From Nanobdellota archaeon (GTDB lineage: Archaea; Nanobdellota; Nanobdellia; Woesearchaeales; GW2011-AR4): 64,000 nt of DNA. The stretch spans positions 56,731-120,730 of the forward strand of contig JBBSWH010000011.1 in assembly GCA_038046385.1 (NCBI GenBank), read 5' to 3'. Below, piece by piece: positions 6,717 through 57,700 of the stretch. Position 1 is the first letter of the stretch. The number at the start of each line of letters is the position of its first letter. The notes beneath the pieces were generated by a model that saw only the letters and a program-made list of their open reading frames with translations, had not been told where the DNA came from and did not search any database. A program made the position numbers and the translations under genes.

Positions 6717-7852
6717 AGTAATTTAGCGACCTCATCAAGCATTTTATCATCAATCTCATCAAACTCATATCCAAGAGAAGTCAGTTTAATCCACAAGCGA
6801 AGCACATTATCAGTAAAGCAGAATTTGTTTCCGTTCTTGTAAATAATATCAGTCTGTATCAGCCTTTCAATAACGCTTTTTGTAACAGGCGCGCTTCTGT
6901 AGATCTTCTTTGCAATGTCAGTTAATCTTAATTCATCGTTTGCAACAACCTTTAGGATTGTTTTAAGAAGCGTTTGACCACGAGCCCTGTTATAATAATA
7001 GTTAAGCGAGTCATTGCAGTAATTGTAAAGTGGATTGTTCTTCTGCAGAAGTTCTATCAAAAATGCCTTTCTAGAATTCTTTATTTCTCTAAACCTTTGA
7101 GAAACAGCAATCATCGCATAATAATTACCATTGCATAAATTGAATATTTCTTCGCTTGATCCGGCATCTATCTTGCCGGCATTCTCTTCGATAAGCAAAA
7201 TAGATTCCTCTTTTTCAAGATTTTTCATCTCGTAGCATTCGAACTGCTTAAGTGAATGAAGAGACTCTTTTACAGCAGAGCTTGCTGCAATATAAGAAAC
7301 ATTGTCTGAGCCAAAGTTAATCAAAGAAAATACATCTTTTATCTGCGAGAAATTATTCATATCAAGAAGATTCTCTATATTGTCCCAAACAATAAGAAAT
7401 TTTTTCTTTGAATCCCTTCCGAGTGCATCTGCAAACCCGAATGCATTTTCAACAATCAGTTTTTGATTTGGCTTTATCTTAAGAAGCTCGTTTTCAACTG
7501 ATTTTATCAAAGAAAAAGCAGAAGAACTATTTAACTCCCCTTCGAGTTTTACAAGATTGTCAAGAACAAGAAATTTTTTGTAATCTTTAGGTGATTTTTT
7601 TAAAAAACTAAAAGCAACATTTCCTATATACTCAACCGAAAAATTCTCTGGATTAAGACTTATCTTGGAAAAATCAACATAAACAGGAACAACGTCTTTT
7701 ACATTTTTGATATGGTTCTTGATAATAGACGTTTTTCCGCATTTCCTTGGACCGAGAAGAGCTATATGCTTTCCTTCATTTTTCTTAAAATTGTTTGTAT
7801 TGGTGTCTAGCAAATTCCTGTAGAAACTCCTCTTTACGTTGCTGTCGACCAA
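6713..7852 (-). CDS. archaeal AAA-type ATPase (Arch_ATPase family P-loop NTPase with C-terminal DUF234-like winged helix)
   Basis: Walker A 'LLGPRKCGKTS'; Walker B-like 'FLIVWDNIE'; C-terminal wHTH-like 'KSVIERLIQTDIIYKNGNKFCFTDNVLRLWI'. Confidence 0.75.
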   Translation of the reverse strand: MVDSNVKRSFYRNLLDTNTNNFKKNEGKHIALLGPRKCGKTSIIKNHIKNVKDVVPVYVDFSKISLNPENFSVEYIGNVAFSFLKKSPKDYKKFLVLDNLVKLEGELNSSSAFSLIKSVENELLKIKPNQKLIVENAFGFADALGRDSKKKFLIVWDNIENLLDMNNFSQIKDVFSLINFGSDNVSYIAASSAVKESLHSLKQFECYEMKNLEKEESILLIEENAGKIDAGSSEEIFNLCNGNYYAMIAVSQRFREIKNSRKAFLIELLQKNNPLYNYCNDSLNYYYNRARGQTLLKTILKVVANDELRLTDIAKKIYRSAPVTKSVIERLIQTDIIYKNGNKFCFTDNVLRLWIKLTSLGYEFDEIDDKMLDEVAKLL

Positions 7853-17425: not shown

Positions 17426-17926
17426 CTATTTCTTTTTCTTTCCTTTGCTCTTTTTTTCTTTTGTCCTTGAATGTGCAATCCAAAAATATACTGCGATGAG
17501 GCCGGAGTAATTAAGCAGCATGAACCACCAAGTCCCCCAGCTTATTCCGTCAAATCTATAATTTGCCAAAGGCCATAAGAAAGGCGTGGGAAAAAACTTA
17601 GTTGAATGTGTCGGAATGTCAATCAGTATGTGTATCGGCCATCCAAGCATTGGCCAGAACCATTTTTTTGTTATTAAAAATACAATTAAGAAAACAACGG
17701 CAAAAACAATCAGGCTGTGCGTCATATTGTATGCAGAAAAAATCCAGCTTGGCAGCGATTCAAGCGCCGGTTTTCCCCTGTGAAGCGTTCCTGTTGCGAT
17801 GCCAATCACAAAAAGAATGCCAAAAGACAGCAAATCCGGCAAAACCCCGAAAAATGCCCCAAGCCATGCGTATTTCTTTTTATTGAATACTGCATAAGCC
17901 CATAATCCGTGCGCTAAAGTGTCCAT
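17426..17926 (-). CDS. membrane-bound metal-dependent hydrolase-like protein (YdjM/DUF457 family)
   Basis: N-terminal 'MDTLAHGLWAY' followed by 4 hydrophobic helices with conserved His residues. Confidence 0.55.
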   Translation of the reverse strand: MDTLAHGLWAYAVFNKKKYAWLGAFFGVLPDLLSFGILFVIGIATGTLHRGKPALESLPSWIFSAYNMTHSLIVFAVVFLIVFLITKKWFWPMLGWPIHILIDIPTHSTKFFPTPFLWPLANYRFDGISWGTWWFMLLNYSGLIAVYFWIAHSRTKEKKSKGKKKK

Positions 17927-17930
17927 TTTA

Positions 17931-18036
17931 TTGTAAATTTAGTGTATTTAAATCTCACACTTCAGTGAGAAATTTACAATCTAGCAGACTCACTTATTAA
18001 TTAATCGGTAGTGCGGTGAGTCTGCGTTATTTTTTT
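17931..18036 (+). repeat. structured repeat element, copy 1 (TTGTAAATTT-inner hairpin-AAATTTACAATC-long hairpin-TTATTT)
   Basis: stem 'gcagactcac'/'gtgagtctgc'; conserved flanks. Confidence 0.65.
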
Positions 18037-18587
18037 AATGTTGATTTTGATATTAAATCAAGAAGTAATGGGAACTTTGTAAATCCTGCTTCTTTGTTTA
18101 GGTGGCCCCCTTGAGGTATTATTCTTAATTCTGCTCCAACATATTTCGCAAGCTCTTTGCTTACATCGACTGTGATGTACTCATCATTGTCAGAAGCAAT
18201 AACAAAGAATTTTTTGCAGCCATTCTTTATTTTTTTCCAGTCGAATTTTTTGTCTGTAAAAGTTTCCAGTATTTTGTCATAAGGGCTTCCAAGCTGCTTG
18301 TGGAACCCTGCAACAAGAAATACGGAATTTACTTTTTTATCGGACTGTTCAAGATAATTAAGAATAAATGCGGCCCCGAGGCTGTGTCCAATCAAAACAG
18401 TTTCTTCATTAATTTTGTCTTCATGTTTTTTGATTATTCTTAGCCAGCTTTCAAGTGTCTGGTTTAGGGGAGTAGGAAACTTAGGGACAATAGTGTCATA
18501 TCCCTTTGTTTCCATCTTTTTCTTAAGCCATGGAAACCAGTTTCCATCAGGACTGCTGTAGACTCCGTGTATTATTATGAAATTCAT
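18027..18587 (-). CDS. alpha/beta serine hydrolase (YdeN/RBBP9-like)
   Basis: 'IIIHGVYSSPDGNWFPWL' and nucleophile elbow 'GHSLGA'. Confidence 0.7.
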   Translation of the reverse strand: MNFIIIHGVYSSPDGNWFPWLKKKMETKGYDTIVPKFPTPLNQTLESWLRIIKKHEDKINEETVLIGHSLGAAFILNYLEQSDKKVNSVFLVAGFHKQLGSPYDKILETFTDKKFDWKKIKNGCKKFFVIASDNDEYITVDVSKELAKYVGAELRIIPQGGHLNKEAGFTKFPLLLDLISKSTLKK

Positions 18588-19099
18588 TTTATTTTTGCGT
18601 ATAAGTAAGCATCAATATATTTGCCGTCTTTGCTGCAATGTTTTCTCAACAGCCCTTCTTTTTTGTATCCGTTTTTTACCAGCACCCTGGAAGATTTTTT
18701 GTTGAATGAAAACACAGTTGCATAAATTCTGATTAATTTTAAATTATTTAAGCCATAATCTGTCACAAGATTTACCGCTTTTGTTATTATCCCTTTATTC
18801 CAATATTTTTTCCCCAGCCAGTATCCCATTTCTGCTTTATGGCATTCAATATGGTTGAATCCTATTCCCCCAACTACTTTTCCATTTATGTCGATTGCGA
18901 AATTAATCTCTTTTTTATTTTTTAATTTTGCTAATTTTAAATTATAATTTATCCACCATTTAGCGTCTTTTTTGGTAAATGGATGTGGAATCCTGCACGT
19001 ATGCCTGTAAATATCAAAATCATTGACATTTTCTTTTAAAGATTCTTCATCGCCTTTTTTATAAAGCCTGATTACAAACCCTTTTCCTTTCAGTTTCAT
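18584..19099 (-). CDS. GNAT-family N-acetyltransferase (RimJ/RimL-like)
   Basis: ~170 aa; GNAT-like core 'WLGKKYWNKGIITKAV'; overlaps neighbours by 4 nt. Confidence 0.6.
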   Translation of the reverse strand: MKLKGKGFVIRLYKKGDEESLKENVNDFDIYRHTCRIPHPFTKKDAKWWINYNLKLAKLKNKKEINFAIDINGKVVGGIGFNHIECHKAEMGYWLGKKYWNKGIITKAVNLVTDYGLNNLKLIRIYATVFSFNKKSSRVLVKNGYKKEGLLRKHCSKDGKYIDAYLYAKIK

Positions 19100-20868
19100 T
19101 TTCTTCTGATAAAATTGCTTAATGTAATCTGCTCATCTTTGTTTGCGCTTAAGTAAATGACCTGGCCTTCCTTGCTGCCCGACCTGTAAATAGAGATGCC
19201 TTTGCATCCAAGCTCATGCGCCATCATGAATATTTTTTCAATATCTTCAACTTTGGCATCTTTTGGCAGCGTAACTGTTTTTGAAATTCCATTGTCTACA
19301 TACGTTTGGAATGCAGCCTGCATTTTTACGTGCCATTCAGCTTCAATGTCGCTTCCAATAACAAAAATGTTTCTTATTTCTTCCGGAATCTCCTTTATAT
19401 TTTTTATAGACCCTTCCCTGTTTATTTTTTCAATTATTTCTTCTGTATAAATGCCGGAATCAGCAAGCTTTTCCTTCAGCTGCCTGTTGAAATAAATCAG
19501 GGTCTTTCCTTCTGCCGTGCTCCTGTTATAGCTTAATGCAAACAGCGGCTCGATTCCGCTTGACACATCTGCAATAATGCTTATAGTGCCGGTTGGCGCG
19601 ATTGTTGTTCTTGTTGCATTCCTTAATACAGCGTGATTTCCCTTAAAATGCCTGCTTTTTTTATTGTAAACGCTTTGATTCCATGCAGGAAAAGCGCCCC
19701 TTTGCCCAGCAATAGCTACAGAAGAATTATCTGCTTCATTTGAAATGAATTTCATAACCTTTTCAGCAGTTTTTAATGCTTCATCTGAATCATAAGCGAT
19801 GTTCATCTTGATAAGCATGTCTGCAAACCCCATCACTCCGAGGCCAATTTTTCTGTTTTGCTCTACGAATTTTCTGTTTGCCTCAAGAGGATAATTGCAC
19901 ATGTCAATAACATTATCAAGGAAATGCACAGCAGAACGGACAACTCCCTTTAGCCTTTCAAAGTCTACAGTCCCATCTTTGACAAAGTTGCTTAAATTAA
20001 TGCTTCCCAGGTTGCAGGATTCATAAGGCAATAATGGCTGTTCTCCGCATGAGTCTGTTGATTCAATTGTTCCAAGTGCTGGCGTTGGATTGCTTTTGTT
20101 GATTGTATCAATAAAAATAACTCCGGGGTCTCCGTTAAGCCATGCATGTTCGCATAATATCCTGAAAATCCTGCTAGCGCTTTCTTTTTTTACAAACTTT
20201 TTGGTTCTGTAATTTATTAGATTGTAATCTTTGTCTTTGGCGACTGCATTAAGGAATTTGTCAGTGACTGCCAATGAAATGTTGAAATTTGTAAGTGTGT
20301 TCTCGCGGCTTTTTATTGTTATGAATTCCTCAACATCAGGATGATCCACATTCAGGATGCCCATGTTTGCTCCCCTTAAAGTGCCTCCCAATTTAATCTG
20401 GCCGGTTGCTGCGTCAAATACTTTCATGAATGATACTGGACCGGATGTGAATCCTGCGCTTTCAATTATGTCGCCTTTTGGCCTTAAGTTAGAGAAGTTA
20501 AATCCGGTTCCTGCGCCTGTTTTGTGGATTAAAGCAGAATCATGCAGCGTCATGAATATAGAGCTTATGTCATCTTCTATCGGAAGCACAAAGCACCCGG
20601 CCAGCTGCTGCAGTTTTCTGCCTGCATTTATCAGGGTCGGGGAATTAGGAAGAAAATCAAGCGAAGCCATGAGGTTGTAGAACTCTTCTTCAGCCCTCTT
20701 TATGTTTTTTTTCTGGGATTTGTATTTTGCATCAGCCGATGCTACGTTTTTTGCAACCCTCCTGAACAGTTTTTCAGGCGTTTCAATTATCCTTCCCTTA
20801 TCATCGCGCTTCAGGTATCTCTGCTCAAGAATCATCAATGCATTCTTCGATAAATGTGAGTGCTTCAT
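19096..20868 (-). CDS. nrdJ: class II (adenosylcobalamin-dependent) ribonucleotide reductase, short form without ATP-cone or C-terminal Zn ribbon
   Basis: '[14 protein letters not shown]', 'NSPTLINAG', '[23 protein letters not shown]' and '[10 protein letters not shown]' (catalytic Cys/Asn) align with the long NrdJ at 23378-25966. Confidence 0.85.
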
Positions 20869-20869
20869 T

Positions 20870-21256
20870 TTATTTTACAAATTCTACCCCTTCTTTAGTT
20901 TTAAATTTTGAATCTCCGGTTAGAAAATGCATTTCCCTCTCCAAAGAAAATGCATATCCGACACAATCAATGTAGCTTAGCTTTTCTTTTTTATTTGCGA
21001 GTTTTATTTCCATGCCTATTTTTATTGCAGTATGAGTTAAATCCACACAAAAACCCAGCCAATAGTCAAAATAACGGTTTGCCTTTTCTTTTCCATAAAC
21101 CCTGAGAAGGTGGTAGTACAATTCCATCAAATTAAATTCAGAAGTTACCAATGCAGAATTTTCATATTTTTTGTAATTTTCATTGCCGCCAATTATCTCT
21201 ATCAAGGCGTATGTATCACAAAAAAAGATTTCAGTGCTCATCATATCCCTTATCAA
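20870..21256 (-). CDS. vapC: PIN-domain protein (VapC-like toxin), second copy
   Basis: 'IFFCDTYALIEI' PIN N-terminal Asp; 128 aa; overlaps the AbrB gene. Confidence 0.6.
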   Translation of the reverse strand: MIRDMMSTEIFFCDTYALIEIIGGNENYKKYENSALVTSEFNLMELYYHLLRVYGKEKANRYFDYWLGFCVDLTHTAIKIGMEIKLANKKEKLSYIDCVGYAFSLEREMHFLTGDSKFKTKEGVEFVK

Positions 21257-21467
21257 TGTCTTCCATCGCCTTTTGGGTAGACATTTTAAGCTTCAATGTT
21301 CCAAAGATGCTGTCAAAACTTTTTTTTGAGTCTTTAAAAACCAAAACCTTTATTTTTTCATTTGGTTTTATTTTTTCATCCTTAATTATATCTGCCGGTA
21401 TGGTTATACCTAATGAATTTCCCCATCTTTTTGGTATTGCTTCAAATTGCTCCATTTTAATCACCAC
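21231..21467 (-). CDS. vapB: AbrB/SpoVT antitoxin (VapB), second copy
   Basis: 'AIPKRWGNSLGITIPADIIKDEKIKPNEKIKVLV'. Confidence 0.7.
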   Translation of the reverse strand: MVIKMEQFEAIPKRWGNSLGITIPADIIKDEKIKPNEKIKVLVFKDSKKSFDSIFGTLKLKMSTQKAMEDIDKGYDEH

Positions 21468-21499
21468 TTTTATGTATAATTTAATTATATATAAACTTA

Positions 21500-21614
21500 T
21501 TGTAAATTCGTGGGTTTAATGCCTATACTTCAGCACGAATTTACAATCCCGCAGACTCGCCTATTAATTACGATGCGCAATAATGCGCCGAGTGGCGAGT
21601 CTGCGTTATTTATT
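21500..21614 (+). repeat. structured repeat element, copy 2
   Basis: 'ttgtaaattcgtg...cacgaatttacaatc' + stem 'cgcagactcgcc'/'ggcgagtctgcg' + 'ttattt'. Confidence 0.65.
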
Positions 21615-21655
21615 TTTGCAATAAATTTATATAATTTAGAATAAGAGACAATATT

Positions 21656-21934
21656 ATGGAGCATCTATCCATTAAAGACATTCATGACAGGCTGGAGCAG
21701 CTTAATGAATGGGAACTTACAGGAGATGAGCTTGTAAAGGAATTTTCGTTTGACAGCTTCAAGGAAGCAATGAATTTTGCGCATCAGGTCGGAGAAGAAG
21801 CTGAAAGGCAGAAGCATTATCCTGTAATCATCATAAGGGGAACCCTTGTTACAATAACATTGTCAACTCCCGCAGCAAACGGAGTCACGCACGATGATTT
21901 TAAGCTCGCAAGGGCAATAGAGCAGATGGTTTAA
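21656..21934 (+). CDS. pterin-4a-carbinolamine dehydratase (PCD/DCoH family)
   Basis: 'EAERQKHYPVIII...THDD' matches the PCD [E]x3-H-[HY]-P...H-D signature; 92 aa. Confidence 0.75.
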   Translation: MEHLSIKDIHDRLEQLNEWELTGDELVKEFSFDSFKEAMNFAHQVGEEAERQKHYPVIIIRGTLVTITLSTPAANGVTHDDFKLARAIEQMV

Positions 21935-21998
21935 TTATTTTCAAGTTCCTTATTTCATTGAAGCAGATTAAGGGCGAGTTTGTGAACTTGTAGTCAAA

Positions 21999-22199
21999 TT
22001 ATTTTCTTTTTTTGTATTTTTTTCTATAATATTCTGTTTTTAGTATGTGTAAATACTCCATAATCCATCTTACTGGCCAATATTCTTTATGACCTGGTTT
22101 TGGCCAATTACCCATTCCATCAAAAGCAGGATGAGAATCTAAATAATTTTCAATTTTGTCCGTTTTCTTTTTCAGTTCTTTAATGGATAGTTTACTCAT
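21999..22199 (-). CDS. small hypothetical protein (66 aa, Lys/Tyr/Trp-rich)
   Basis: ORF only. Confidence 0.35.
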   Translation of the reverse strand: MSKLSIKELKKKTDKIENYLDSHPAFDGMGNWPKPGHKEYWPVRWIMEYLHILKTEYYRKKYKKRK

Positions 22200-22210
22200 A
22201 GAACAAAAAA

Positions 22211-22516
22211 TTAATTTAATGCGTCTTCAATTTCTTTTTGCCTAGTAGGGAACTTTTCGATTAAAAAACGAACTAATTCTTCTGGATATCCCACCAAACG
22301 TTTAAATTCAATAGTATTTATTTTTAATTCCCTAGTGCAAGCGGCTCGTATAGTACTCTCCTTCCTACCATTTTCTTGAGCAATTTTGTATAACGCTACA
22401 TCGAAAGAATTATTATCCTTAATCATTAGTTTTGATACACCTATAACATGCTTAAATTGTTCATTTGGATTATTTCTCTCTTCAATTTTTTTGAGCAATT
22501 TATCCCAATCTTTCAT
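22211..22516 (-). CDS. hypothetical protein (101 aa)
   Basis: ORF only; host-like composition. Confidence 0.45.
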   Translation of the reverse strand: MKDWDKLLKKIEERNNPNEQFKHVIGVSKLMIKDNNSFDVALYKIAQENGRKESTIRAACTRELKINTIEFKRLVGYPEELVRFLIEKFPTRQKEIEDALN

Positions 22517-22525
22517 AGTCTTAAT

Positions 22526-23134
22526 CTAGTATTCAATTCCTTTTCTCGCGATAATCCCCTTCTGCCAGGGGTGCTTTACGCTTTGGACAACATTGACATA
22601 ATCTGCCAATTCTATTATCTCCTGCGGAGCGTCTCTTCCTGTAAGCACAAGTTCAACTTTGCCGTGGTTTTTCAGAATATCAAGAACCTCATTTATCGGA
22701 ATAAGGTTTTTTTCCAGAACGCAGTTTATCTCATCCATTATGACCATGTCATATTCTCCGCTTTTAATTGTTTTTTTCACATGCTCCCAGCCCTGCATCG
22801 CTGCATCTTTTTCCTTTATGTCCGGCTGAAATGTAAAAGTTCCTGTTTTGTCGGAGAATTCCTTAAAGTGTTTTTGCTTGTCTTTCAAGGCATCAACGCC
22901 AAACTGCTCTATTTCAAATCCCAATTTCTTTGCGCTGTAAATTTCTCCGGTAAATCCGCTCTTAAGAAATTGTATCATGCAAACCTGAAGATTATTTCCA
23001 ACAGCCCTTAATGCCAGTCCCAATGAAGAAGTTGTCTTTCCCTTTCCGTCTCCTGTTATGACATGAACAAGGCCAAGGTGATCCTTGCTGTTGTCCCCCT
23101 TTACTTTGATTGGATTCTTTATTTTCGTGAGCAT
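22526..23134 (-). CDS. cobA: ATP:cob(I)alamin adenosyltransferase (CobA/CobO/BtuR family)
   Basis: 'LVHVITGDGKGKTTSSLGLALRAVG' P-loop typical of CobA/BtuR. Confidence 0.88.
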   Translation of the reverse strand: MLTKIKNPIKVKGDNSKDHLGLVHVITGDGKGKTTSSLGLALRAVGNNLQVCMIQFLKSGFTGEIYSAKKLGFEIEQFGVDALKDKQKHFKEFSDKTGTFTFQPDIKEKDAAMQGWEHVKKTIKSGEYDMVIMDEINCVLEKNLIPINEVLDILKNHGKVELVLTGRDAPQEIIELADYVNVVQSVKHPWQKGIIARKGIEY

Positions 23135-23377
23135 TTTAGTATAGGTAACATTTTTGGCTTTAAATATTTATCATTAGTGGATTACTTATCAGTATTGATT
23201 AAAATTATATGTAAATTTTTTAATGTTATTAGTTAATGAGTTTTATTATTGAAATTTAATCCCGTTCGGCTTCGCCTCACAAAATATAGTGCTCGGGTTT
23301 CGCTCGGTTGCCAGTCGCTCAACCCTCGCCAATCTATTGTTATAAAATAAAAATTAATTAAAAAGAAAAAAACAAAA

Positions 23378-25966
23378 CTACATGCAAAGGCCCCATCCGC
23401 ATCCGGGACAGTGCAGGCATCCTTCTTTTATCTCAACTTTTGCGCCGCATTCAGGGCAGTTTTTGATTGTAGTCTTTGTCATTGGAGCAGATACTTTGTC
23501 TGCAAACACAAGGTTTCCGGATTCCTTAACAGCAGCCTGCTGTACTGGAATTGCTTGTGGAGCTGGCTTTGCTTCTTTCTCCTCCCTTGCTTTTGGCGCA
23601 ACCAATACCTGATCCTTGATGCTGGAATCCCTGAACACTGTGACATCTTTGCATCCAATCTTGTAAGCCAGTATGAAACTTTGCCTCATATCTTCAAGAG
23701 TTGCATCTGCAGGGAAATTATTTGTCTTTGAGATGCTTGAGTCTACCCATCTTTGGAAAGATGCCAATGCCATTATATGCTCTTCAGGAGTTATGTCCAT
23801 TGCAGTCACAAGCGCTTTTTTTATGTGCTCTGGCACATAATCGAGGCTTTGTATGCTTCCCTTGTTTTGGTTAATATCTTCCATTACTTTATCGTTCAGC
23901 AAGCCTTCTTCTCTTAAGACCTTTTCTCCTGCAGGGTCAATGTAGAAGAATTTTCCAACAGCAACGTTTTTTTCATAAACAAGGCTGTAGACCGGTTCCA
24001 TTCCAGATGAACAGCCAGCTATCATTGAGATGCTTCCGGTTGGCGCAATTATTGTAGTGTATCCATTTCTTATGCCATACTTCTTCATGTCGTTGCTTAT
24101 CTTTTCCCAGTTTAATTTTGCATTCCCTCTGTATGGGCCGCTTATTGGATGCCTGCCCTGCTTGTAGAAGCTCTTGTCATAGTAAGGCAAGTTCCCTCTT
24201 GCTTTCGCAAGCTCTATGCTTTCAACCTTGCTCCAGTAAGCAACAAACTCCATAAGCTGTTCCATAAAATTCCTTCCTTCCTCTGAATTGAACGGAAGCT
24301 TTAGTTCATAAAGCAGATTTGCAACTCCCATAACTCCAAGGCCAACTTTCCTTGTCGAAAGGCTCATCTCTTCTATAGCTTTCAATGGGAAATTGTTAAC
24401 ATCAATCACATTATCAAGGAACCTTGTTGAGCTCATTACAACTTCTTTCAATGCATCCCAGTCAACTGTCGTTTGGCCATGCTCATCCATTCTTGCAAAT
24501 GCCCATACATTGATTGATCCAAGGTTGCATGGCTCATTCGGATACAAAAGAACTTCTCCGCAAGGGTTTGTTGTTACGATTGGCCCAAGATGCTCAAAGA
24601 ACGGGTTGTATTCGTTTACTTTATCGTAGAAAATAACTCCCGGTTCAGCAGATTCCCATGCCTGATAAACAATTTTGTCAAACAATACTCTTGGGTTAAC
24701 TGTCTTTACAATCTTGCCGTCTTTCGGATTAACCAATGGGTACGGCTCGTTCTTTTCATAGTGTTCCCAGAAATCTGGCATTATCAAGACGCTTATGTTA
24801 AAGTTCCTCAATGCTTTGTTTCCGTCTTTTGCTGTTATGAACTTCTCAATGTCAGGATGATTTGAGTTAAGGATGCCCATATTGGCGCCTCTTCTTATAC
24901 CCCCTTGTTTGATGACTTCTGTCATTGTATCAAACAGCCTCATGAAGCTTAATGGGCCTGATGCTGTTCCGCCTGTTGAAGAAACAAAATCTCCCTCTGG
25001 CCTTAATTTTGAAAAATTGTAGCCCATTCCTCCGCCAGCTTTGAATACTATTGCTGTATTCTTTAGAGTCTCCATTATGCCATCTATACTATCTGGCACA
25101 TCAAGAACAAAGCATGCGCTTCCCATTCCCAATGGATTTCCAAAATTTGCAATTGCAGGAGTATTCGGCATGAATAGCTTCTGTGTCATAAGATTGTACA
25201 GTTCATCCAGATTTTTTTCATAATTGTCAAAGTCGCCTTTCTTAATCATGTCAAAAAATTTGCTCCACGTTACTTTCATCTGCTTGTTTCTGTTAAAGCG
25301 GTCATACATCCTCTTCACAGCTTCAAGATGGTATCTGTTCAGCTTGTACTTTCCAACACCATACTGGTTTTCATGCACAGCTGGCCTAAACTCTTCAACA
25401 ATGTTGGTCTGCTGCTGGCCGCTTATGTCAAAAACTTTTGAATCATAGAATAAATCAGGAAGTGCAGCATGCACAGCTACCCTTGTGAAAAGCTGTTTTG
25501 GAGTTTCAATCAGCTTGCCTGTTGCATCCCTTCTCAAGTATCTTGCTTTTAGGACTCTTAGAGCATTAACATCAAACTTCTTGTCAACTTCATCCACTTC
25601 TTCCTTTTCAAGCACAATCTGCTTTTCTTTCCTAACAGCAGCTCTCTGTTCCCTATAAAGTATGAATGCTTTTGCTGTTGTTGCATGCCCTTCTTCCATA
25701 AGCACTTTTTCAACAGTGTCCTGGATTTCTTCAACAGAAGGGGTTGTTTTTAATGCTTCCAGCCTTTGCATGACTATATTACTAAGCTGCTGCGCTAATT
25801 TTCGGTCTTTTCCGCCAACTGACTGGGCCGCTTTCCATATTACATTTGTAATTTTTGACTGATTGAATGAAACTACGCTACCGTCCCTTTTCTTTATCCT
25901 AGAAATTTTTGATTCCATATTTATCTGACCCTCCTTCGGCAAAATCTTATTTTCGCTTATTTTCAC
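23378..25966 (-). CDS. nrdJ: class II (adenosylcobalamin-dependent) ribonucleotide reductase, long form with N-terminal ATP-cone and C-terminal Cys4 Zn ribbon
   Basis: ATP-cone 'ISRIKKRDGSVVSFNQSKI'; 'NPCGEV', 'EPCNLGSINV'; C-terminal 'CPECGAKVEIKEGCLHCPGCG'. Confidence 0.9.
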   Translation of the reverse strand: MKISENKILPKEGQINMESKISRIKKRDGSVVSFNQSKITNVIWKAAQSVGGKDRKLAQQLSNIVMQRLEALKTTPSVEEIQDTVEKVLMEEGHATTAKAFILYREQRAAVRKEKQIVLEKEEVDEVDKKFDVNALRVLKARYLRRDATGKLIETPKQLFTRVAVHAALPDLFYDSKVFDISGQQQTNIVEEFRPAVHENQYGVGKYKLNRYHLEAVKRMYDRFNRNKQMKVTWSKFFDMIKKGDFDNYEKNLDELYNLMTQKLFMPNTPAIANFGNPLGMGSACFVLDVPDSIDGIMETLKNTAIVFKAGGGMGYNFSKLRPEGDFVSSTGGTASGPLSFMRLFDTMTEVIKQGGIRRGANMGILNSNHPDIEKFITAKDGNKALRNFNISVLIMPDFWEHYEKNEPYPLVNPKDGKIVKTVNPRVLFDKIVYQAWESAEPGVIFYDKVNEYNPFFEHLGPIVTTNPCGEVLLYPNEPCNLGSINVWAFARMDEHGQTTVDWDALKEVVMSSTRFLDNVIDVNNFPLKAIEEMSLSTRKVGLGVMGVANLLYELKLPFNSEEGRNFMEQLMEFVAYWSKVESIELAKARGNLPYYDKSFYKQGRHPISGPYRGNAKLNWEKISNDMKKYGIRNGYTTIIAPTGSISMIAGCSSGMEPVYSLVYEKNVAVGKFFYIDPAGEKVLREEGLLNDKVMEDINQNKGSIQSLDYVPEHIKKALVTAMDITPEEHIMALASFQRWVDSSISKTNNFPADATLEDMRQSFILAYKIGCKDVTVFRDSSIKDQVLVAPKAREEKEAKPAPQAIPVQQAAVKESGNLVFADKVSAPMTKTTIKNCPECGAKVEIKEGCLHCPGCGWGLCM

Positions 25967-25984
25967 TACTTTATCGAAACCACA

Positions 25985-26025
25985 ATAGGTAGTATGTATG
26001 ATGACGTCTGCATACTACAGGTAGT
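25985..26025. promoter_or_regulatory. palindromic operator-like site upstream of the long nrdJ
   Basis: 'gtagtatg-tatgatgacgtctg-catactac' with flanking 'aggtagt' repeats. Confidence 0.35.
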
Positions 26026-26101
26026 GGTTTTTTAACGCTGACCTAATATTTAAAGATTGTGTTTTTATTGTAACAATTGACTTAAAAATTTTATATAAAT
26101 T

Positions 26102-26253
26102 ATAAATAACGCAGACTTGTTACTCTATATACATTTACAACAAGTCTGCGGGATTGTAAATTTATCGTGGAACAAAGTTCCGCGGATATCCGCTGAGCTT
26201 TGCTCAGCGAATACATGCAAAATCATTGGGTTTTTATACCCATGAATTTACAA
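26102..26253 (-). repeat. structured repeat element, copy 3 (inverted orientation, with a ~50-nt three-hairpin insertion)
   Basis: stem 'cgcagacttgt'/'acaagtctgcg'; 'gggattgtaaattt' and 'gaatttacaa' termini. Confidence 0.6.
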
Positions 26254-26350
26254 TAAACTTCATAATACTTTTAAATCAAGAATTTGTAGTTGCTTTCCCT
26301 TTAAAAATCTTAGGCAAGCATGTCCAGTGGTTTTTATATGTAGCCTCAAA

Positions 26351-26484
26351 GTTAGCATCAATATGCGAAGGCATTTTATTTATCCAGCTAATATGGCAGG
26401 GGGAAGCCCCTTACGGGGATGCCATATAATCTAAACCCTGTAGACAGCCTGAGCCGATGCTAACTTTGGCAAATCCATGCCAAA
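26351..26484. ncRNA. candidate structured RNA: nested long-range stems enclosing GC-rich apical hairpins
   Basis: outer stem 'gttagcatc' (26352-26360) / 'gatgctaac' (26455-26463); inner 'atatggca'/'tgccatat'; apical 'gggggaagcccc' and 'ccccttacgggg'; then the hairpin 'ttggcaAATCCAtgccaa'. Confidence 0.35.
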
Positions 26485-26532
26485 CGTTTATAAACCGATA
26501 AAAATACCAAAATACGTTACAAAATTCTTATT

Positions 26533-45593: not shown

Positions 45594-48497
45594 ATGAAAA
45601 AAATACTCGATAACAAGACTGCAAAAGGAATAACCGGATTTGTAATGATAATGCTGATGATGATTTCAGTATTTATGTTTGCATTAAGCAACAACACGTC
45701 AATAACTGCAAATGTTGTGAAATTTGAAGATACTGATACGGCAAAAAATAATGCAGTTATTCAAACTAAAGAAATAAATTCACTTTCACAGTTAAACGAA
45801 GGATGGTACGAGATAAGAAACGGATTTGTGTTTTATCTTGAGGATTTCAATACTCCGGTTCCGCTTTATATTAGATTAAAAAATTCTAATCAAAACGGAA
45901 TGGCTGTTGTAGATTCCGATGGAACAGTTTCATTTGAAGAGAGTTCTGATAAATTAGTAGAGAAGATAATCACTGACAAGGACATTAGGAAATCAAGTTC
46001 TTCAAATCAGATAACTGGGAATGCTGTTGGAATGAGTGCAGTGACTGGGATGCAGACGGCAACGCCCCCAACATTTACAGGCACTGCGAGTTCTATAGGC
46101 AGAGGCTGGATCAGTCTTGTTCAATCTTCAACCACCGATGAGCAAGGAAATTACCGCGCTTTCCTTAATGATGGGACTGCTGTATTTATTCCAAAAGATG
46201 GAAGCTCATTTTATTTTGGGAATAGAAAAAGTGATGGAACATACAATTGGCAGCAGAACACAGGAAATGGCCCACTACAGACAATTGCGCAGCCGCCAGG
46301 ATATTCACCCGTCCCTGCAGCAGAACAAAGAAGTGGAGCGCAAGGTGGAGGAACTGCAGCACAAGGAGCCGAAGGAACGCAAAAAACACAAAACGGATTG
46401 CCAATCCCTCCCGAAGCAAGCAGATCAACAGGAAATCTTCCAACACCAACTGAAACACACACTTCTCAAGAGATAATCTCTGGGGCATTCAAACTCACTC
46501 CTAAAACTCCATTTAAGGCAAGCGACAATGCTGTTTACTATCAAGAATGCTCAACATGTCCAATACAAGTAACCAAAAATAATGGTGGAAATTGGAAAAA
46601 TGTAGAGCGCACTTTTTATTTCGATGCTGTTGATGTTAATAAAAGATCAGGGCACATATCCCAACCTGCGTTTACTCAGGATGAAGCAAAGAAATTATTG
46701 GAAGTCCAAGGATTCACAAATGTACACACTGGTAATCCATCAACTCCAACTCAACTTCCACCTTCTTCAAGGCCGACAGGAACATACGTATTAAGTCCAG
46801 ATAAAAAATATATCACTAATCCAAGTTTAGAACCAGTATTCGTTACGCCTGGAATGGATCCACAGCAGTACCTTGATGACTATAACAACAAAGCAAAAGT
46901 TTTAGACGCTTATCATAGCTGGCTTGCCAAGAGTGGCGTAAAGGATAGCCCAGCTAATCAGGCACTATTTAGTAAATATCCCTCCGAGGGAATAACAACT
47001 CCAGATGCCGATAAGGCATTTAATTTAGTTACTCCACCCAAGACTGGAACTCAAAACAGTGAGCCAAAAGAGACTAAACTTCCAAACGGAAATCCTGGAT
47101 GGATTCTCCCTAACGGAGATGTAACTGATGATAAATTCTTAGGAGAACACCCTAATGCAAAGAAAGAGCCGAAAATAACAACAGGAAATGATCAGCCAGT
47201 TTATTCTCTCAAAGGGCAGTACTATGGCAGCGATGGAAAACCAGTTGCAAGCATAAACCAAAAGATAACCATTACAGGAAACGAATACGATGCAGTTTAC
47301 ACGTTAACTGATGGAAAAAATCCAGCCATAAGTTCTGTAAACGGATATTCAATGACCCCTTCTACTTTAAAATATATAAATGATAACGCAAAAGGCAAAG
47401 GAGATTCCTTTACAATAAGTTCAGAAGGGTTTACAATAACCAAAGCAACCACAACTGTACATGGACAGGAAATTTCAACAGTTATAACTGGCAGTCAAAG
47501 TAGAATCTATGATTTAACTACCTTTACAAAAAAAAATAAAGATGGAGCTATAACTGGTCTTGTTATAACGGAGCAAGGACATGATAAGGATGGAAAGGGG
47601 ATAACCTACAATCAAAGAACAGAATATAGCAGGGGCAGTGATGGAACAATCAATAAGGACAGCTCGGATTATATAACAATATTAACTGATGCAACAGGAA
47701 AACCTACGCGTGTGGATGCCAAGGTGAATGGAGTTTCTAGTTCAGCCGCTACAGGTACTGGTGGGCAGAATGGAGGTGGAGGTAGAGCCCTAGAAATACT
47801 CAACAAAGAAATCAGCCAATACACTTGGAGACAGAGATTTGCAACAGCCGAGAGATGGCTGACAGAATTCAGAGGTCTTGGTTATTATGCGACTTTGTTC
47901 ATGAGCGATGATTCATTATTGCACTGGAGAGAAGAAACCGACAAGGTATTTTCAAACCTTTATCTTGGAACAGAATACTGGAGCAGCGGAATATGCGGCA
48001 AGTACATCAACACAGGCTCTTCCGAAGGCATTGCATTCGCAGACACCCCTCAGGGCGTTGCGCAGGTTGCAACCCACATTGAAGCGACAAGAACTCAGCC
48101 AATACAGTCAGATACAGGAACAGAATATGTTTACAAAATAACATTCAGCGTGAGAAACGGCGATTATGAAGAAGACTTAAGAGCGCCTGAAAAGATGAAC
48201 ATAAAAGTCATAATAAAAGGCCAGACAGAGTCAAAGCTTTTCAAGAATGATGTTGAAGTCAAGAGAGGAACAACATTCGGAAGAGCAGGAACAAAAGCGA
48301 TTGTAAAGCAGAGCAAAAAGCTTTATGACAAAGTCTGCATTGAATTTGACCAGATTCCTGAAAAGTGGCACATAGAAAACAAACAGCTGTGCAACAAAGT
48401 AATTGAAGAAAATGGAGAACCACTCTCTTTAGAAAGGCTAAGGCAGCAAGAAGAGCAGCAGGCAAGCGGAGAGCCTGTATTGAGTGATGACTGGTAA
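45594..48497 (+). CDS. Thr/Gly/Ser-rich low-complexity cell-surface protein (~968 aa) with an N-terminal TM anchor
   Basis: 'ITGFVMIMLMMISVFMFAL' anchor; TGT/GGG low-complexity (likely glycosylated); Met 45594 lies 1 nt after the upstream stop. Confidence 0.65.
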   Translation: MKKILDNKTAKGITGFVMIMLMMISVFMFALSNNTSITANVVKFEDTDTAKNNAVIQTKEINSLSQLNEGWYEIRNGFVFYLEDFNTPVPLYIRLKNSNQNGMAVVDSDGTVSFEESSDKLVEKIITDKDIRKSSSSNQITGNAVGMSAVTGMQTATPPTFTGTASSIGRGWISLVQSSTTDEQGNYRAFLNDGTAVFIPKDGSSFYFGNRKSDGTYNWQQNTGNGPLQTIAQPPGYSPVPAAEQRSGAQGGGTAAQGAEGTQKTQNGLPIPPEASRSTGNLPTPTETHTSQEIISGAFKLTPKTPFKASDNAVYYQECSTCPIQVTKNNGGNWKNVERTFYFDAVDVNKRSGHISQPAFTQDEAKKLLEVQGFTNVHTGNPSTPTQLPPSSRPTGTYVLSPDKKYITNPSLEPVFVTPGMDPQQYLDDYNNKAKVLDAYHSWLAKSGVKDSPANQALFSKYPSEGITTPDADKAFNLVTPPKTGTQNSEPKETKLPNGNPGWILPNGDVTDDKFLGEHPNAKKEPKITTGNDQPVYSLKGQYYGSDGKPVASINQKITITGNEYDAVYTLTDGKNPAISSVNGYSMTPSTLKYINDNAKGKGDSFTISSEGFTITKATTTVHGQEISTVITGSQSRIYDLTTFTKKNKDGAITGLVITEQGHDKDGKGITYNQRTEYSRGSDGTINKDSSDYITILTDATGKPTRVDAKVNGVSSSAATGTGGQNGGGGRALEILNKEISQYTWRQRFATAERWLTEFRGLGYYATLFMSDDSLLHWREETDKVFSNLYLGTEYWSSGICGKYINTGSSEGIAFADTPQGVAQVATHIEATRTQPIQSDTGTEYVYKITFSVRNGDYEEDLRAPEKMNIKVIIKGQTESKLFKNDVEVKRGTTFGRAGTKAIVKQSKKLYDKVCIEFDQIPEKWHIENKQLCNKVIEENGEPLSLERLRQQEEQQASGEPVLSDDW

Positions 48498-49284
48498 AAT
48501 GCCAAAAAAACAAAGCTATTGGGAAAAGAATATTGAACTGTTAAAATCCACAATAAAAAAGATAGACAAATGGATTTTGATTTCAATAGCCTTGGACATT
48601 GCTTTCTATATAATTGTCATTTATTCATTTATGTTCTGGAACAGCTCAGTCCAGGCAAAGCAATTTTCAATAATGTCAAAATACCCGCCTGACCCGATGA
48701 TGATGTCTGCATCTCAATTGCAAAGCATAAATACAGAAGCAAAATCTTTCCTTATATTGCTTTATTCATCAATCGTACTGCTTGCATTATTCATTATTTT
48801 CATTGCAAGCATTGTAAAGGGAATCATCTGGGCAAAAACAACATCCACAAAGATAAACCTCCACTTAATCTCAAGGTTTTTAGGATTAAACTTGATTTGG
48901 ATGGGATTGTGGGCTGCAATAATCATTTTAATCGTATTTGGGATAGATAACTCTTCTTTAGTTGCATTTGCATCATTATCAATTGTTATAGCGCTTTATT
49001 TTACCAATATAGTCTACTCACTGTTCATGAAAAGCAATAAACTATCTTCAATAGCTGAAGGATTAAAATTAGGTGTTTCAAAGATAAGTTACTTTGCAAT
49101 TCCAAACGCAGCATTATTCTTGGTTGTTTACCTGCTAATAAACTCAGGAAGCCTTTTTAATGCAATACAGAAAAATGCCGGCTACATAAACCTTGCAATA
49201 CTGGTGCTGCTTATAGCATTCATGGCCTTTGCAAGATACTACACTTCGACATTAGTTTATCAGGTTCAGAAAATAAAATCATAA
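48484..49284 (+). CDS. polytopic membrane protein (266 aa, ~6 TM); topological paralog of 58011-58823
   Basis: hydrophobicity pattern; last gene of module 1. Confidence 0.6.
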   Translation: MMTGKMPKKQSYWEKNIELLKSTIKKIDKWILISIALDIAFYIIVIYSFMFWNSSVQAKQFSIMSKYPPDPMMMSASQLQSINTEAKSFLILLYSSIVLLALFIIFIASIVKGIIWAKTTSTKINLHLISRFLGLNLIWMGLWAAIIILIVFGIDNSSLVAFASLSIVIALYFTNIVYSLFMKSNKLSSIAEGLKLGVSKISYFAIPNAALFLVVYLLINSGSLFNAIQKNAGYINLAILVLLIAFMAFARYYTSTLVYQVQKIKS

Positions 49285-49299
49285 ACTTTGTATTTAAGT

Positions 49300-49430
49300 G
49301 CCATCGAAGATGGTACATTTTTTGTTCAAACTTTTTCGCAAAAAGTTTGTCGGTGCAAATTGGACAAAGTCCAATTGCACACTTGAGCTCTGCTCAAGTT
49401 GTGTCAACGGACGAAACCGTTGAAACCGAA
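49300..49430. other. cluster of five consecutive GC-containing hairpins downstream of module 1 (terminator complex or small structured RNA); the last hairpins are homologous to 26166-26215
   Basis: 'ccatcGAAgatgg', 'aaactttttCGCaaaaagttt', 'ttggaCAAAGtccaa', 'cttgagcTCTGctcaag', 'caacggACGAAAccgttg'. Confidence 0.5.
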
Positions 49431-54700: not shown

Positions 54701-57700
54701 AACTTTGTTGCAAAGGCTTACAGAATGTGGGCAGAATTTAAAGATGAAAAGATGCCAACTGTTTCTGATGGATGTCCTGAGGCTATTGCCAGCGCAATAA
54801 AAACTAAAGGATTTAAAATAAACTCTCTAAGAGACGCTGATTTGAAAACGTGCCTTCCAGGCACAGCAAGCGCGTGGGCAACAGAATCAAAAATGTACCA
54901 GCTTCAGAGATGGAGCTGCGACAGAATCTTCGGGCATTCAGCTCCTTCGAAATGGACAGTAGACAAGAGTGATGTGGAACTAACTTCTAAAATAGATACT
55001 AAACAAACATGTTCTTCTGACGGAGATACAAAGGGAAGGCAGATTTATGCAGAGGATTGCAGGAAACTCATTCAAACAGTTTTCAAAGGGTTAAATAACA
55101 ACATAGGCGCTTACCAGCCTGGAGACAAATGCTTTGATATTCACGAAGGCAACTCAAAGTCAATGTACAAGCTTGGAAATCAAATTGAAAACAATGTTTA
55201 TGAGCTCCAATATGTCCCGGGTTCAGGCTCTCAAATAGAGCTCAGTTATGCAATCAAGCAAAGCAACAGCAACTTTATGACAGCACAGTCAGGAACATGC
55301 GATGATGTTTGTGGCATAAATAAAGAAGATAAACAGGCTGGCAAGATGACTTTTGGAGATAATACATTTACGTTGCACAAAGGGGCTTTTAATTCAAAAG
55401 ATTCGGAAGAAATAGGCAGGAGTGGAAGCGGTTGCGTTACAGTAAATGAATGCAGACAACTAATAGCGACAGCGGCAAAAGATAAGTCATTGACAATTCC
55501 AGGTGTAGGTTTAATAGAAAATCCAAATGTGTATCGGGGAGGATATTCAAAAAATTGCTTCTATAATGATAAAGATTCTTCAACAGTTAATCCAACGAAT
55601 GCAAACACAAGACAGGAATGCTGCTGCGTAAAAGGAAAAGGCTCTGATTCAAAACCTAATCCATATTATGGGCCATCCGATGTCGAATCCAAATCAAGCC
55701 CGGGAAGCCAAGCAACAGCTATTGATGACATGAAATGGAGCTACAGGTATTCAAGAATAAACTATAATGATAAAAAGTATAATCCTAACAGGTATATTGA
55801 AGGGCGTGATTTGCCTGCGTGCTTCGGGCAAGATAGTTTCTTGCATACTGCATTGAATAGAAAAGAAGAAGTTCTTGTCCTAGATCCATTTAAGCAGCAC
55901 ACAGCAGCAATGCAGTGCTTGTTTTTAACCGGAATAAATCAAAGGCTGCAGATGTTTAAGAACGTGATGACTTCAATGTCAAACTGCCTTGTTGAAGTCA
56001 GGGAAAGCGGAAGAGCCGATACTGGAGTGTGCAAAGAGCTTTTCACGCAGCATGTCTGCGACGTAGTATGGCAAGGAGTTAATTTCTTTGTCAATCCTGG
56101 CTGCGGCACAGAAGAAACCGGAAATGGAATGAGTATAAGAGAAGATGAAGTTACTGATAATTTAAGATTAGGATTCAAGAGTATTGCAAGCGGAATATCA
56201 AAAACTCAGCAGGAAATAATGCAAGAGTATCCTACTACTCAGATTGGAACACTGCTCGGCACAGGCGGAGAAAGTGTCTCAAGAAAAATATGCCTTGGCG
56301 CATTTGGCTATGACTGGGCATTGAACACAAGAAATCTGATTGATATAGCATATTCTGCGCCGTTTGCAACATTAGTACAGCCAGTTACAAAATCAAGAGA
56401 GTTCTTAACAGTTGATCCCTTGACATTAAAGCCAAAATACGAATACAGCGCATCATGGTTCATTAACCCAGGATGCGATTTAGAAAACTACAATGTGCAA
56501 TTGGCATGCATTTCAAGAAAGGAACTGGACGAATATCCAAACTCGATAAAATGTTCTTCTGTTGGTGCTGGTTCAATTTTGGATGTTGTGCCTGCAGGAA
56601 CAAGCGAAGGTTACAGCAGCTGCGACTGTTTGGAATTGCCGCAGGAAGTTACGCAACAATTTATTTCAGAGCCAAAGCTCAAGCAGAATGCACCGATTGA
56701 CAGAAGCTACCGCAAAGTTGTTGACTCAAACTACAGATACGATCATTTGAAGTTCACATTAAAAACAGACAGGAAAATACCAGCAAACATCCAGTCAAGC
56801 TGCTTCCCAACAGGATATGAAAAAGGAGTTTTCTATTCGCCTATACTTGACAAGACAGCAAGGGATATTACAGATTGCACAATACAGCCAACAAGCGGCG
56901 TAATGTCATGCGGCGGCGGAAATGCATTCTTCAGCAGGAAAGGAACTGTGCAACTAATAGGAGTAACTTTAAATGATGTTGATGCTGAAAAAGCCCCTGG
57001 AAGAACTGTTGAAGCAAGAGTTGGAGAAACATTGACCGTTTCTGCAAAAGTAACAAAAACAGGATTGGGTAAATGCATGAAAGTTTCATTATCCCCTGAC
57101 CCAATAGAGCCGCAGTATGTTCCAATAGATGTAGACGGAACATCTGATGTGTCTGTTCACTTTGATGGATTGTCAATATATGGCACAGCAGGAAACACTG
57201 TTGCAAGGTTCATAAAAATAGGCTCATTGATACAAAGCAATGACCACATAGTATCAATTAAGATTAACATAACAGATAATAATGAAACAATCAACGGAAG
57301 GCCAAATCCGGGAATTGGAACATACACTTCTGATGATTATGTTACAATTGACGATGCAAAAGTCAGCCTGATAGACGGAAGCGTCCAGAACAATAACAAC
57401 GAGAATCTGAAAATAACAGTAAATGGAAATTCAATAAATGTAGAAAAAGACGGCGCTTCTTTTGCAATAACAGGAGTCAATTGGCAAAGAAATGTGGACA
57501 AAAGATTTGAAGCAGTTGAGACAATAATAATAAACCCGCAGCAGCAGGGAAGCACAACATCGCAGAAAAAAACAGTGAAGATTGAGATTTTCAACATGAA
57601 AGAAGGAGTTGAATCTTACAACGATGTTACTGACTGCAGTATAAATGATGTAGCTCTTCCTGCAAAGAGTTATTATGTGATGGTGGGCCAGAAAGGAGCG

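Follow-up and report, generated by a model that had tools for sequence, protein, structure and literature searches.

The 64,000-nucleotide stretch of archaeal DNA analyzed here (the window; positions 56,731 to 120,730 of contig JBBSWH010000011.1 from a Nanobdellota archaeon) carries three copies of a short structured repeat around its two ribonucleotide reductase (RNR) genes and cobA. These repeats are very probably a non-autonomous, protein-less mobile DNA element with hairpin ends, composed of two dissimilar hairpins and a 3-nt linker and devoid of terminal inverted repeats. Its insertions are lineage specific and precisely bounded, with a target motif on one side only and a fixed orientation; its hairpin bases are constrained, and it has no coding capacity. 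The element is a genomic parasite, not a regulator of the RNR or cobalamin genes, its link to the RNR and cobA genes being presumably positional only, through local hopping or chance. An earlier note made from the sequence alone had pointed to three structured copies near these genes, all intergenic, and both observations hold, with the ends now refined to those in Table 1. On the right of copy 1, the TTA doubles as the stop codon (TAA) of the hydrolase gene 18027..18587 (-).

Empty sites with precise boundaries in related genomes identify the element as an insertion. The closest relative recovered, L170, is a 62-kb scaffold from Rifle that was reached through an 86%-identical membrane protein. 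Across 15.8 kb the two share 84% of their nucleotides and an identical gene order, and the blastn alignments stop precisely where the element begins and ends. For copy 1, L170 (9990-10010) reads ggaaaaaTAAATGgacact (...aaaaaTAAATGgac), with the hydrolase stop abutting the next ATG (TAAATG), versus aaaaaaaTAA[CGCAGACT...AATTTACAA]TAAaATGgacact in the window, i.e., TAA[96 bp]TAAaATGgac. The blastn breaks at this site fall at 18027 and 17928, and L170 9999-10000 aligns to both sides of the insertion. The Lys-stop AAATAA of the hydrolase gene is also found in L170, without the element. The copy 3 site is empty in L170 as well (955-1000; ...gtgtggggaaaaaTTATTTataatttatataaaa...; ...aaaagtgtggggaaaaaTTATTTataatttatataaaa; or aaaaaTTATTTataattt), the region upstream of RNR2 running uninterrupted (AAAAATTATTTATAA); the filled site in the window is ...aaaagtattatgaagtTTA[TTGTAAATT...AGTCTGCG]TTATTTataatttatataaaa, i.e., TTA[144 bp]TTATTTataattt, and by blastn the region measures 157 nt in the window versus 11 nt in L170. 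Judging from these alignments, copies 1 and 3 inserted after the window lineage had split from its closest sampled relative.

Two further insertions show the same pattern. The AbrB/VapB-PIN-RNR1 operon (-) and the leaderless pterin dehydratase gene at 21656 (+) are divergent, each with its TATA box, and copy 2 is located between these two boxes. In the relatives L089, L028, and L085, two TATA boxes stand at this site 20-40 nt apart with a single TAA, versus TAA-element-TAA in the window. A fourth copy was found in the metagenome contig L019 (Ga0209542_10053599), another Woesearchaeota contig, at an unrelated locus between glycogen synthase and debranching-enzyme genes; in a 75%-identity relative, only 10 nt separate the two genes. 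The TTATTT that follows the distal hairpin is present in a relative's empty sites and is therefore native target DNA, neither part of the element nor its terminator.

All copies share a common plan. The core spans TTGTAAATT to AGTCTGCG and comprises a first hairpin, H1 (TTGTAAATT-variable interior-AATTTACAA), a 3-nt linker, TC(C/T), and a second hairpin, H2, formed by (C/A)GCAGACT (CGCAGACT) plus 3 to 5 variable bp, a loop, and the complementary bases ending in AGTCTGCG. H1 and H2 are each flush with one end of the core. Of the architecture that the earlier note had described, this two-hairpin plan stands in every copy; the TTATTT tail does not belong to it. The 20-mer AATTTACAATCNNGCAGACT has exactly three matches in the window against 0.12 expected, one per copy, and R1, a covariance model made from the element copies, matches only the three copies across the 64 kb when run with its filters off. 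Whichever of three possible boundaries is chosen, terminal inverted repeats are lacking, the ends TTGTAAATTC... and ...GAGTCTGCG (reverse complement CGCAGACTC) having nothing in common. In comparison with shuffled controls, all copies fold with z-scores of -4.9 to -8.5 as RNA, on either strand, and of -6.7 to -8.7 as single-stranded DNA (ssDNA), the hairpins being equally stable as ssDNA.

Table 1. Coordinates of the element copies, their parts and flanks, and the related palindromic hairpins in the window
Feature	Position	Strand	Remarks
Copy 1 core	17931..18026	+	96 bp; R1 score 109 bits
Copy 1 parts	H1 17931-17979; linker 17980-17982; H2 17983-18026		Linker TCT
Copy 1 location	17931..18026		Occupies the entire gap between hydrolase gene 18027..18587 (-) and YdjM-like membrane gene 17426..17926 (-)
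Left TTA flank of copy 1	17928..17930		TAA on - strand; 1 nt off the membrane-gene ATG (17924-17926, - strand)
TTATTT target motif beside copy 1	18027..18032		AAATAA on - strand; native DNA, outside the element
Copy 2 core	21500..21605	+	106 bp; R1 score 115 bits
Copy 2 parts	H1 21500-21546; linker 21547-21549; H2 21550-21605		Linker TCC; H2 with inner GCGC hairpin
Copy 2 flanks	TTA 21497-21499; TTATTT 21606-21611
Copy 3 core	26110..26253	-	144 bp, inverted; R1 score 95 bits
Copy 3 parts	H2 26110-26150; linker 26151-26153; H1 26154-26253
Copy 3 flanks	TAA 26254-26256; AAATAA 26104-26109		+ strand reading
Nested palindromic insert in H1 of copy 3	26163..26213		51 bp; two hairpins around GATATC; not in copies 1, 2, or L019
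Related hairpin pair	49362..49397	+	TTGGACAAAGTCCAA, then TGAGCTCTGCTCA; at 49362 and 49385; same order as in the nested insert

Pairing was examined in the four independent copies (the three in the window plus L019). In this alignment 98.8% of cells are paired, versus 24-45% in slid controls, with a single G.T wobble. Four pairs, all in distal H2, have changed on both sides (CG<->UA, GC<->AU), and the observed covariation score was reached by 2/500 shuffles, bearing out the compensatory distal-stem changes in the earlier note. The nine basal pairs of H1 and the eight basal pairs of H2 are invariant bar one broken cell, as the earlier note had also recognized for the proximal H2 stem. Basal-stem positions are invariant at 33/34 sites versus 13/53 elsewhere (Fisher p = 3e-12), while the overall identity between whole copies is only 62-85%, i.e., 15-38% divergence. 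In distal H2, what is conserved is pairing and not sequence. The covariation reflects selection for pairing and would fit RNA as well as DNA as the paired molecule.

The single broken cell is polymorphic among strains. At position 17983 in copy 1, the window and L102 have TAGCAGACT, with the basal H2 pair broken (A.G), and L001 (position 6328), L176, and L103 have TCGCAGACT, with the pair intact. That L001 and L176 retain this pair hints at decay in place of the window copy. That the copies diverge while their cores stay intact means either that the insertions descend from several source copies, themselves diverged, or that the cores have been under selection where they sit.

All four independent insertions lie directly 3' of A-N-AAATAA on the strand with H2 first, and all have the same orientation. 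The AAATAA on the H2 side pre-exists in both empty sites of L170; the opposite flank is unconserved (AATGG, GTTTA, ACTTC, and TTTTG). At the far end, three copies finish in ...ACAATAA and the L019 copy in ...ACAATAG, placing TAA on both sides. Seen as flank triplets, TTA is present on both sides in 3/4 copies and CTA/TTA in L019, whereas both empty sites have TTA once only. Genes in this AT-rich genome commonly end in Lys-stop AAA-TAA; for this reason two insertions (hydrolase and L019 glycogen synthase) fall exactly on stop codons of closely spaced genes, with the stop kept, and copy 1 and the L019 copy are codirectional with the flanking genes.

These features suggest how the element could move. 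The invariant basal stems, above which only pairing is conserved, would be recognition structures for a trans-acting enzyme, itself presumably encoded outside the window. A strand-specific ssDNA or site-specific mechanism of the type used by IS200/IS605 elements is suggested by the one-sided motif and its echo at the far end, the fixed orientation, the ends made of hairpins, and the missing inverted repeats. In IS200/IS605 elements, a target-adjacent motif (TAM) lies beside the left end, and the boundary on the right has a similar transposon-encoded motif (TEM). Their hairpinned ends work as single strands, and excision is scarless, with no duplication; protein-less derivatives, the palindrome-associated transposable elements (PATEs), exist (PMC10055086). 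Like the PATEs of Haloquadratum and Geobacillus, the element is non-coding, lacks terminal inverted repeats, and has hairpins at both ends. It likewise inserts in a fixed orientation 3' of a TAM-like AAATAA, with a TEM-like AATAA at the far end, and the scarless excision joint expected for PATEs is what the empty sites look like (PMC10055086).

Several points weigh against reading the repeats as such a mobile element. Neither an autonomous partner nor a transposase domain was found by Pfam among the window open reading frames (ORFs), and no TnpA or TnpB was seen there. IS200/IS605 ends have similar subterminal hairpins plus guide tetranucleotides, whereas H1 and H2 differ entirely in sequence and lie flush with the ends, H2 beginning at the first base after the TAM with no spacer or guide tetranucleotide; the element is also much shorter than described PATEs. 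With its unrelated hairpins and no room for guide nucleotides, we do not file it as an IS200/IS605 derivative. TAA on both sides is expected from a genuine 3-bp target duplication just as much as from a TEM-like far end carrying TAA. Host-function selection in place could also explain why the cores are intact despite 15-38% divergence. Finally, the target consensus and orientation rule rest on the small number of four independent insertions.

Of the competing explanations, a classical DDE-type miniature inverted-repeat transposable element (MITE), moved by cut-and-paste with a 3-bp TTA/TAA duplication as in the IS5 or PIF/Harbinger-Tourist type and with hairpins that are incidental or end stabilizing, is an unlikely one. 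The TTA on both sides in three of the four copies (CTA/TTA in the fourth) and the single TTA in both empty sites would suit it, as would the small size of the element and its AT-rich, intergenic targets. But the ends share no inverted repeat (TTGTAAATT... versus ...AGTCTGCG), the target is asymmetric, with TTT on one side only in 4/4 copies, and a palindromic TWA target would not impose the single orientation seen in all four insertions. A DDE cut-and-paste mechanism with a true duplication would thus account for these features less well than a strand-specific one. The comparison with MITEs in general, including the archaeal Sulfolobus SM elements, runs along the same line. Shared are the small, non-coding, multi-copy nature (three window copies plus L019), the AT-rich intergenic target, the apparent short direct repeat TTA at the flanks, nested insertions, and presence/absence between relatives, the element being missing from L170 and about 15 syntenic relatives; not shared are terminal inverted repeats, the element having none, and its asymmetric target and fixed orientation. 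The suggestion of a MITE-like repeat is therefore supported as to mobility, by the empty sites, abrupt boundaries, one-sided motif, and fourth locus, but not as to the inverted repeats that strictly defined MITEs have. Overall, the element resembles IS200/IS605-derived PATEs more closely than MITEs, with a full fit to neither.

It is rather improbable, on the sequence features considered, that the element has been domesticated as an intergenic module, be it an intercistronic RNA hairpin that acts as spacer or stabilizer, a bidirectional terminator or insulator that separates divergent promoters, or a promoter that travels with the element. The H1 loop is AT-rich (TTTAAATA, TTTTTATA, or TTTTTAAA), lies 18-20 nt from the element end, and faces the downstream gene. 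The membrane gene next to copy 1, once coupled as TAAATG, is intact and now begins 2 nt past the element; a native promoter in the relative L089 has the same distance from TATA to ATG, and the cores are invariant in diverged copies. However, the H1 loop of copy 2 would make a poor TATA (CATTAAAC) and its downstream gene has a TATA of its own; the putative TATA of copy 1 is 2-4 nt nearer the ATG than in the native leaderless promoters of the window; the true start at the L019 locus is 14 nt further on, behind a GGGG Shine-Dalgarno-like motif; and copy 1 has a core pair that varies between strains and is broken in the window.

It is very unlikely that the repeats are structured small RNAs, or leader RNAs acting in cis, that form a family connected with RNR and cobalamin metabolism and have the T-run as terminator. 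What speaks for it is the strong and significant structural stability, the covarying base pairs, the basal stems kept despite the divergence of the copies, the clustering of three copies within 8.3 kb around two RNR genes and cobA, and the orientation of copies 2 and 3 toward the pterin dehydratase gene and RNR2. Against this, the same intergenic regions lack the element in all syntenic relatives, including the 84%-identity L170, and it is missing upstream of the orthologous RNR and cobA genes in about 15 syntenic relatives. Copy 2, with a TATA box on either side, is outside both mRNAs, and so is copy 3, which precedes the RNR2 promoter and its TATA; copy 1 and the L019 copy lie antisense to the RNA reading, on stop codons. 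The L019 copy stands between glycogen genes, and there is no RNR or B12 gene on the 20-kb locus L177 that represents it. No conserved promoter was found upstream of the element copies, and a search of the whole 64 kb with Rfam 15 gave 0 matches at gathering thresholds, the best E-values (0.48-4, among those listed at E <= 5) belonging to chance miRNA or leader models far below threshold. A small-RNA family or a regulatory element of RNR/B12 genes is thus not supported, and the reading of a hairpin-plus-T-run terminator owned by the element fails, the T-run being native flank in the empty sites.

Other known structures were considered and set aside. Bacterial repetitive extragenic palindromes (REP) and REPINs, mobilized by RAYT, resemble the element as extragenic palindromic hairpin doublets of about 100 nt, often beside stop codons, with compensatory pairing; REPINs, however, consist of two inverted copies of one REP with a GTAG head, in tens to hundreds of copies and with a RAYT gene, whereas the present hairpins are unrelated, have no GTAG head, and occur in three copies per 64 kb of an archaeal host with no RAYT-like ORF in the window. 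Integron attC sites are likewise structured single-strand recombination sites after stop codons whose structure is kept more than their sequence. Each attC site, however, folds into a single long hairpin that is imperfect and bulged, pairs its R''/R' boxes (RYYYAAC/GTTRRRY), leaves some bases extrahelical, and belongs to an array beside intI, while the element has two separate hairpins and ends that are not mutually complementary, and GTTATTT does not fit GTTRRRY. The rolling-circle IS91/ISCR/Helitron elements share dissimilar hairpin ends, a one-sided target oligonucleotide, and the absence of a true duplication, but their terminal motifs differ, no Y2 HUH gene was seen in the window, and we know of no miniature derivatives of this size. 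C/D-box or H/ACA RNAs, ribozymes, riboswitches, and origins (ORB) were rejected because their defining motifs are missing and there is no Rfam match, a transcription-factor palindrome because the arm spacing varies from 17 to 91 nt, and a genomic island or composite transposon with copies 1 and 3 as its ends because the gene block is ancestral and syntenic in relatives.

Going beyond the mobile-element reading, the repeats could be archaeal mobile DNA of a class not described before, a minimal "dumbbell" transposon. On excision it would form an ssDNA circle in which 3-nt linkers (TCC and TAA) connect two coaxial hairpins; a strand-specific enzyme of DPANN archaea or their viruses would move it, and it would home to Lys-stop AAATAA gene ends. 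We regard this as a long shot. A circular intermediate of the element would carry the junction ...AATTTACAATAA|CGCAGACT....

Searches beyond the window recovered few copies. Scanning metagenomes with the 20-mer gave 17 loci, with the full element in L019 only; the seed search and covariation analysis proposed in the earlier note have in this way yielded a fourth copy and the highly paired four-copy set. A pattern scan of genome contigs gave 0 matches, three scans of viral contigs (with the junction 20-mer and H2-only and H1-only patterns) returned nothing or chance matches only, and a protein-database search with the across-element peptide NNAD..VCGIVNSC, looking for spurious ORF calls on other copies, gave no candidates. 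Exact protein matches extended the sequence past the window ends by only about 2.6 kb. R1 found no new insertion site in 37 related archaeal loci (565 kb) or in 141 kb (70 kb + 71 kb) from further relatives. Its matches outside the window were the L019 insertion re-sampled in other assemblies and copy 1 re-sampled in L176, which is from the window's own species; weak matches in L025 (9306-9396) and L032 were not copies on inspection. With so few matches across relatives, the family is low-copy and limited to one narrow lineage of groundwater Woesearchaeota. L170, which lacks copies 1 and 3, and L177, which corresponds to L019 and has the glycogen-locus copy, both come from ENA ERZ28563803 (Rifle sample ANAN16-1) and are both 39% G+C, and their counterparts L171 and L178 co-occur in assembly ERZ27254767. 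If L170 and L177 were one genome, the family would have inserted at different sites in two sister lineages.

Copy 3 differs from the others by a nested palindromic insert in H1, with hairpins GGAACAAAGTTCC and CTGAGCTTTGCTCAG (Table 1). The earlier note had a three-hairpin module recurring near 49350-49425; the recurrence is real for two hairpins, not three, the recurring pair being GGA(A)CAAAG(T)TCC followed 23-26 nt on by TGAGCTYTGCTCA. At the second location the pair forms part of five tandem hairpins at about 49297-49425, directly after the stop of gene 48484..49284 (RNA fold z = -7.1). No further occurrence of the pair was found in 622 kb of related archaeal DNA. The recurrence suggests a second, even smaller family of palindromic insertions, and the array at 49297-49425 may represent such a mini-palindromic family or a terminator array.

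The window is a Woesearchaeota (DPANN archaeon) contig of 38% G+C. Proteins identical to those it encodes occur in Hainich groundwater assemblies, and the nearest genomes are Woesearchaeota/Nanoarchaeota metagenome-assembled genomes. It encodes two class II RNRs, RNR1 (590 amino acids [aa]) and RNR2 (about 846 aa, with an ATP-cone), as well as CobA, pterin dehydratase (PCD), a VapBC pair, and Ogg; archaeal replication factor C (RFC) and an archaeal-type glycyl-tRNA synthetase (GlyRS) were recognized by eye only. The order RFC-TerC-GlyRS-DnaJ-like-RNR2-CobA-PCD-RNR1-GNAT-hydrolase-membrane protein-Ogg-EndoIII is kept in about 15 Woesearchaeota loci, and the region is thus ancestral and not an island.

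The surroundings of the three copies vary among relatives. The hydrolase/membrane-gene junction (window 17927-18026), abutting in L170 and filled by copy 1 in the window, leaves the genes 37-75 nt apart in L090 and L089 and 1.2-2.3 kb apart, with room for extra genes, in L028, L043, L085, L088, and L098. The VapB(AbrB)-VapC(PIN) pair beside copy 2 (20870-21467) is missing from L170, which has in its place (6957-7178) an unrelated 222-nt sequence where two hairpins (gaaaatcctacaggattttc; attcaagaatgttccattcttgaat) lie side by side and may represent a further small palindromic element. The roughly 280 nt (26257-26532) that separate copy 3 from the DnaJ-domain gene contain no convincing ORF and a G+C-rich hairpin, ggcatccccgtaaggggcttccccctgcc, at about 26390-26425; gaps upstream of RNR2 toward the DnaJ-domain gene are also long in relatives (about 690-1240 nt).

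RNR2 itself yielded two further observations. Several matches to its orthologues (L043 4040-7729, L056, L083, L085, L086, and L092-L099) span 3.0-3.7 kb or are split, for a protein of about 846 aa, which suggests intein insertions in the class II RNR gene of these relatives, the window RNR2 having none. Upstream of the RNR2 start at 25918, two boxes of 16-20 nt, aaaCCACTACCTGTAGTATG and CATACTACCTATTGTGGttt, lie at 25977-26030 (- strand), mutually inverted and with centers about 32 nt apart. They are near-identical in L170 (1067-1118), with one substitution, in the spacer, between genomes that are 84% identical overall. Each matches 11/16 positions of acaCwAtATaTwGtgt, which we take to be the consensus of the tandem NrdR boxes they resemble, and the pair is probably the real RNR2 operator. 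No NrdR gene was seen in the window.

The findings bear on how such loci are annotated and assembled. Labels such as riboswitch or terminator should not be given to the copies beside the RNR and cobA genes. Being direct and inverted repeats, the copies can break assemblies: the Logan contig L101 starts within copy 1, at a point 16 nt before the membrane gene. The RNR1 segment could also be deleted or inverted through them.

The genomes of DPANN archaea are tiny and tightly packed and are regarded as poor in transposable elements. In the window, a protein-less element of roughly 100 bp has demonstrably inserted at three places within 8 kb. One insertion falls exactly on a stop codon, separating two genes whose counterparts in a relative abut as TAAATG, and the case provides a natural experiment on the insertion tolerance of a streamlined genome. 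If the dumbbell reading were true, the element could split translationally coupled operons with neither gene destroyed. Its invariant basal stems and AAATAA target also constitute a defined substrate with which to find the mobilizing enzyme.

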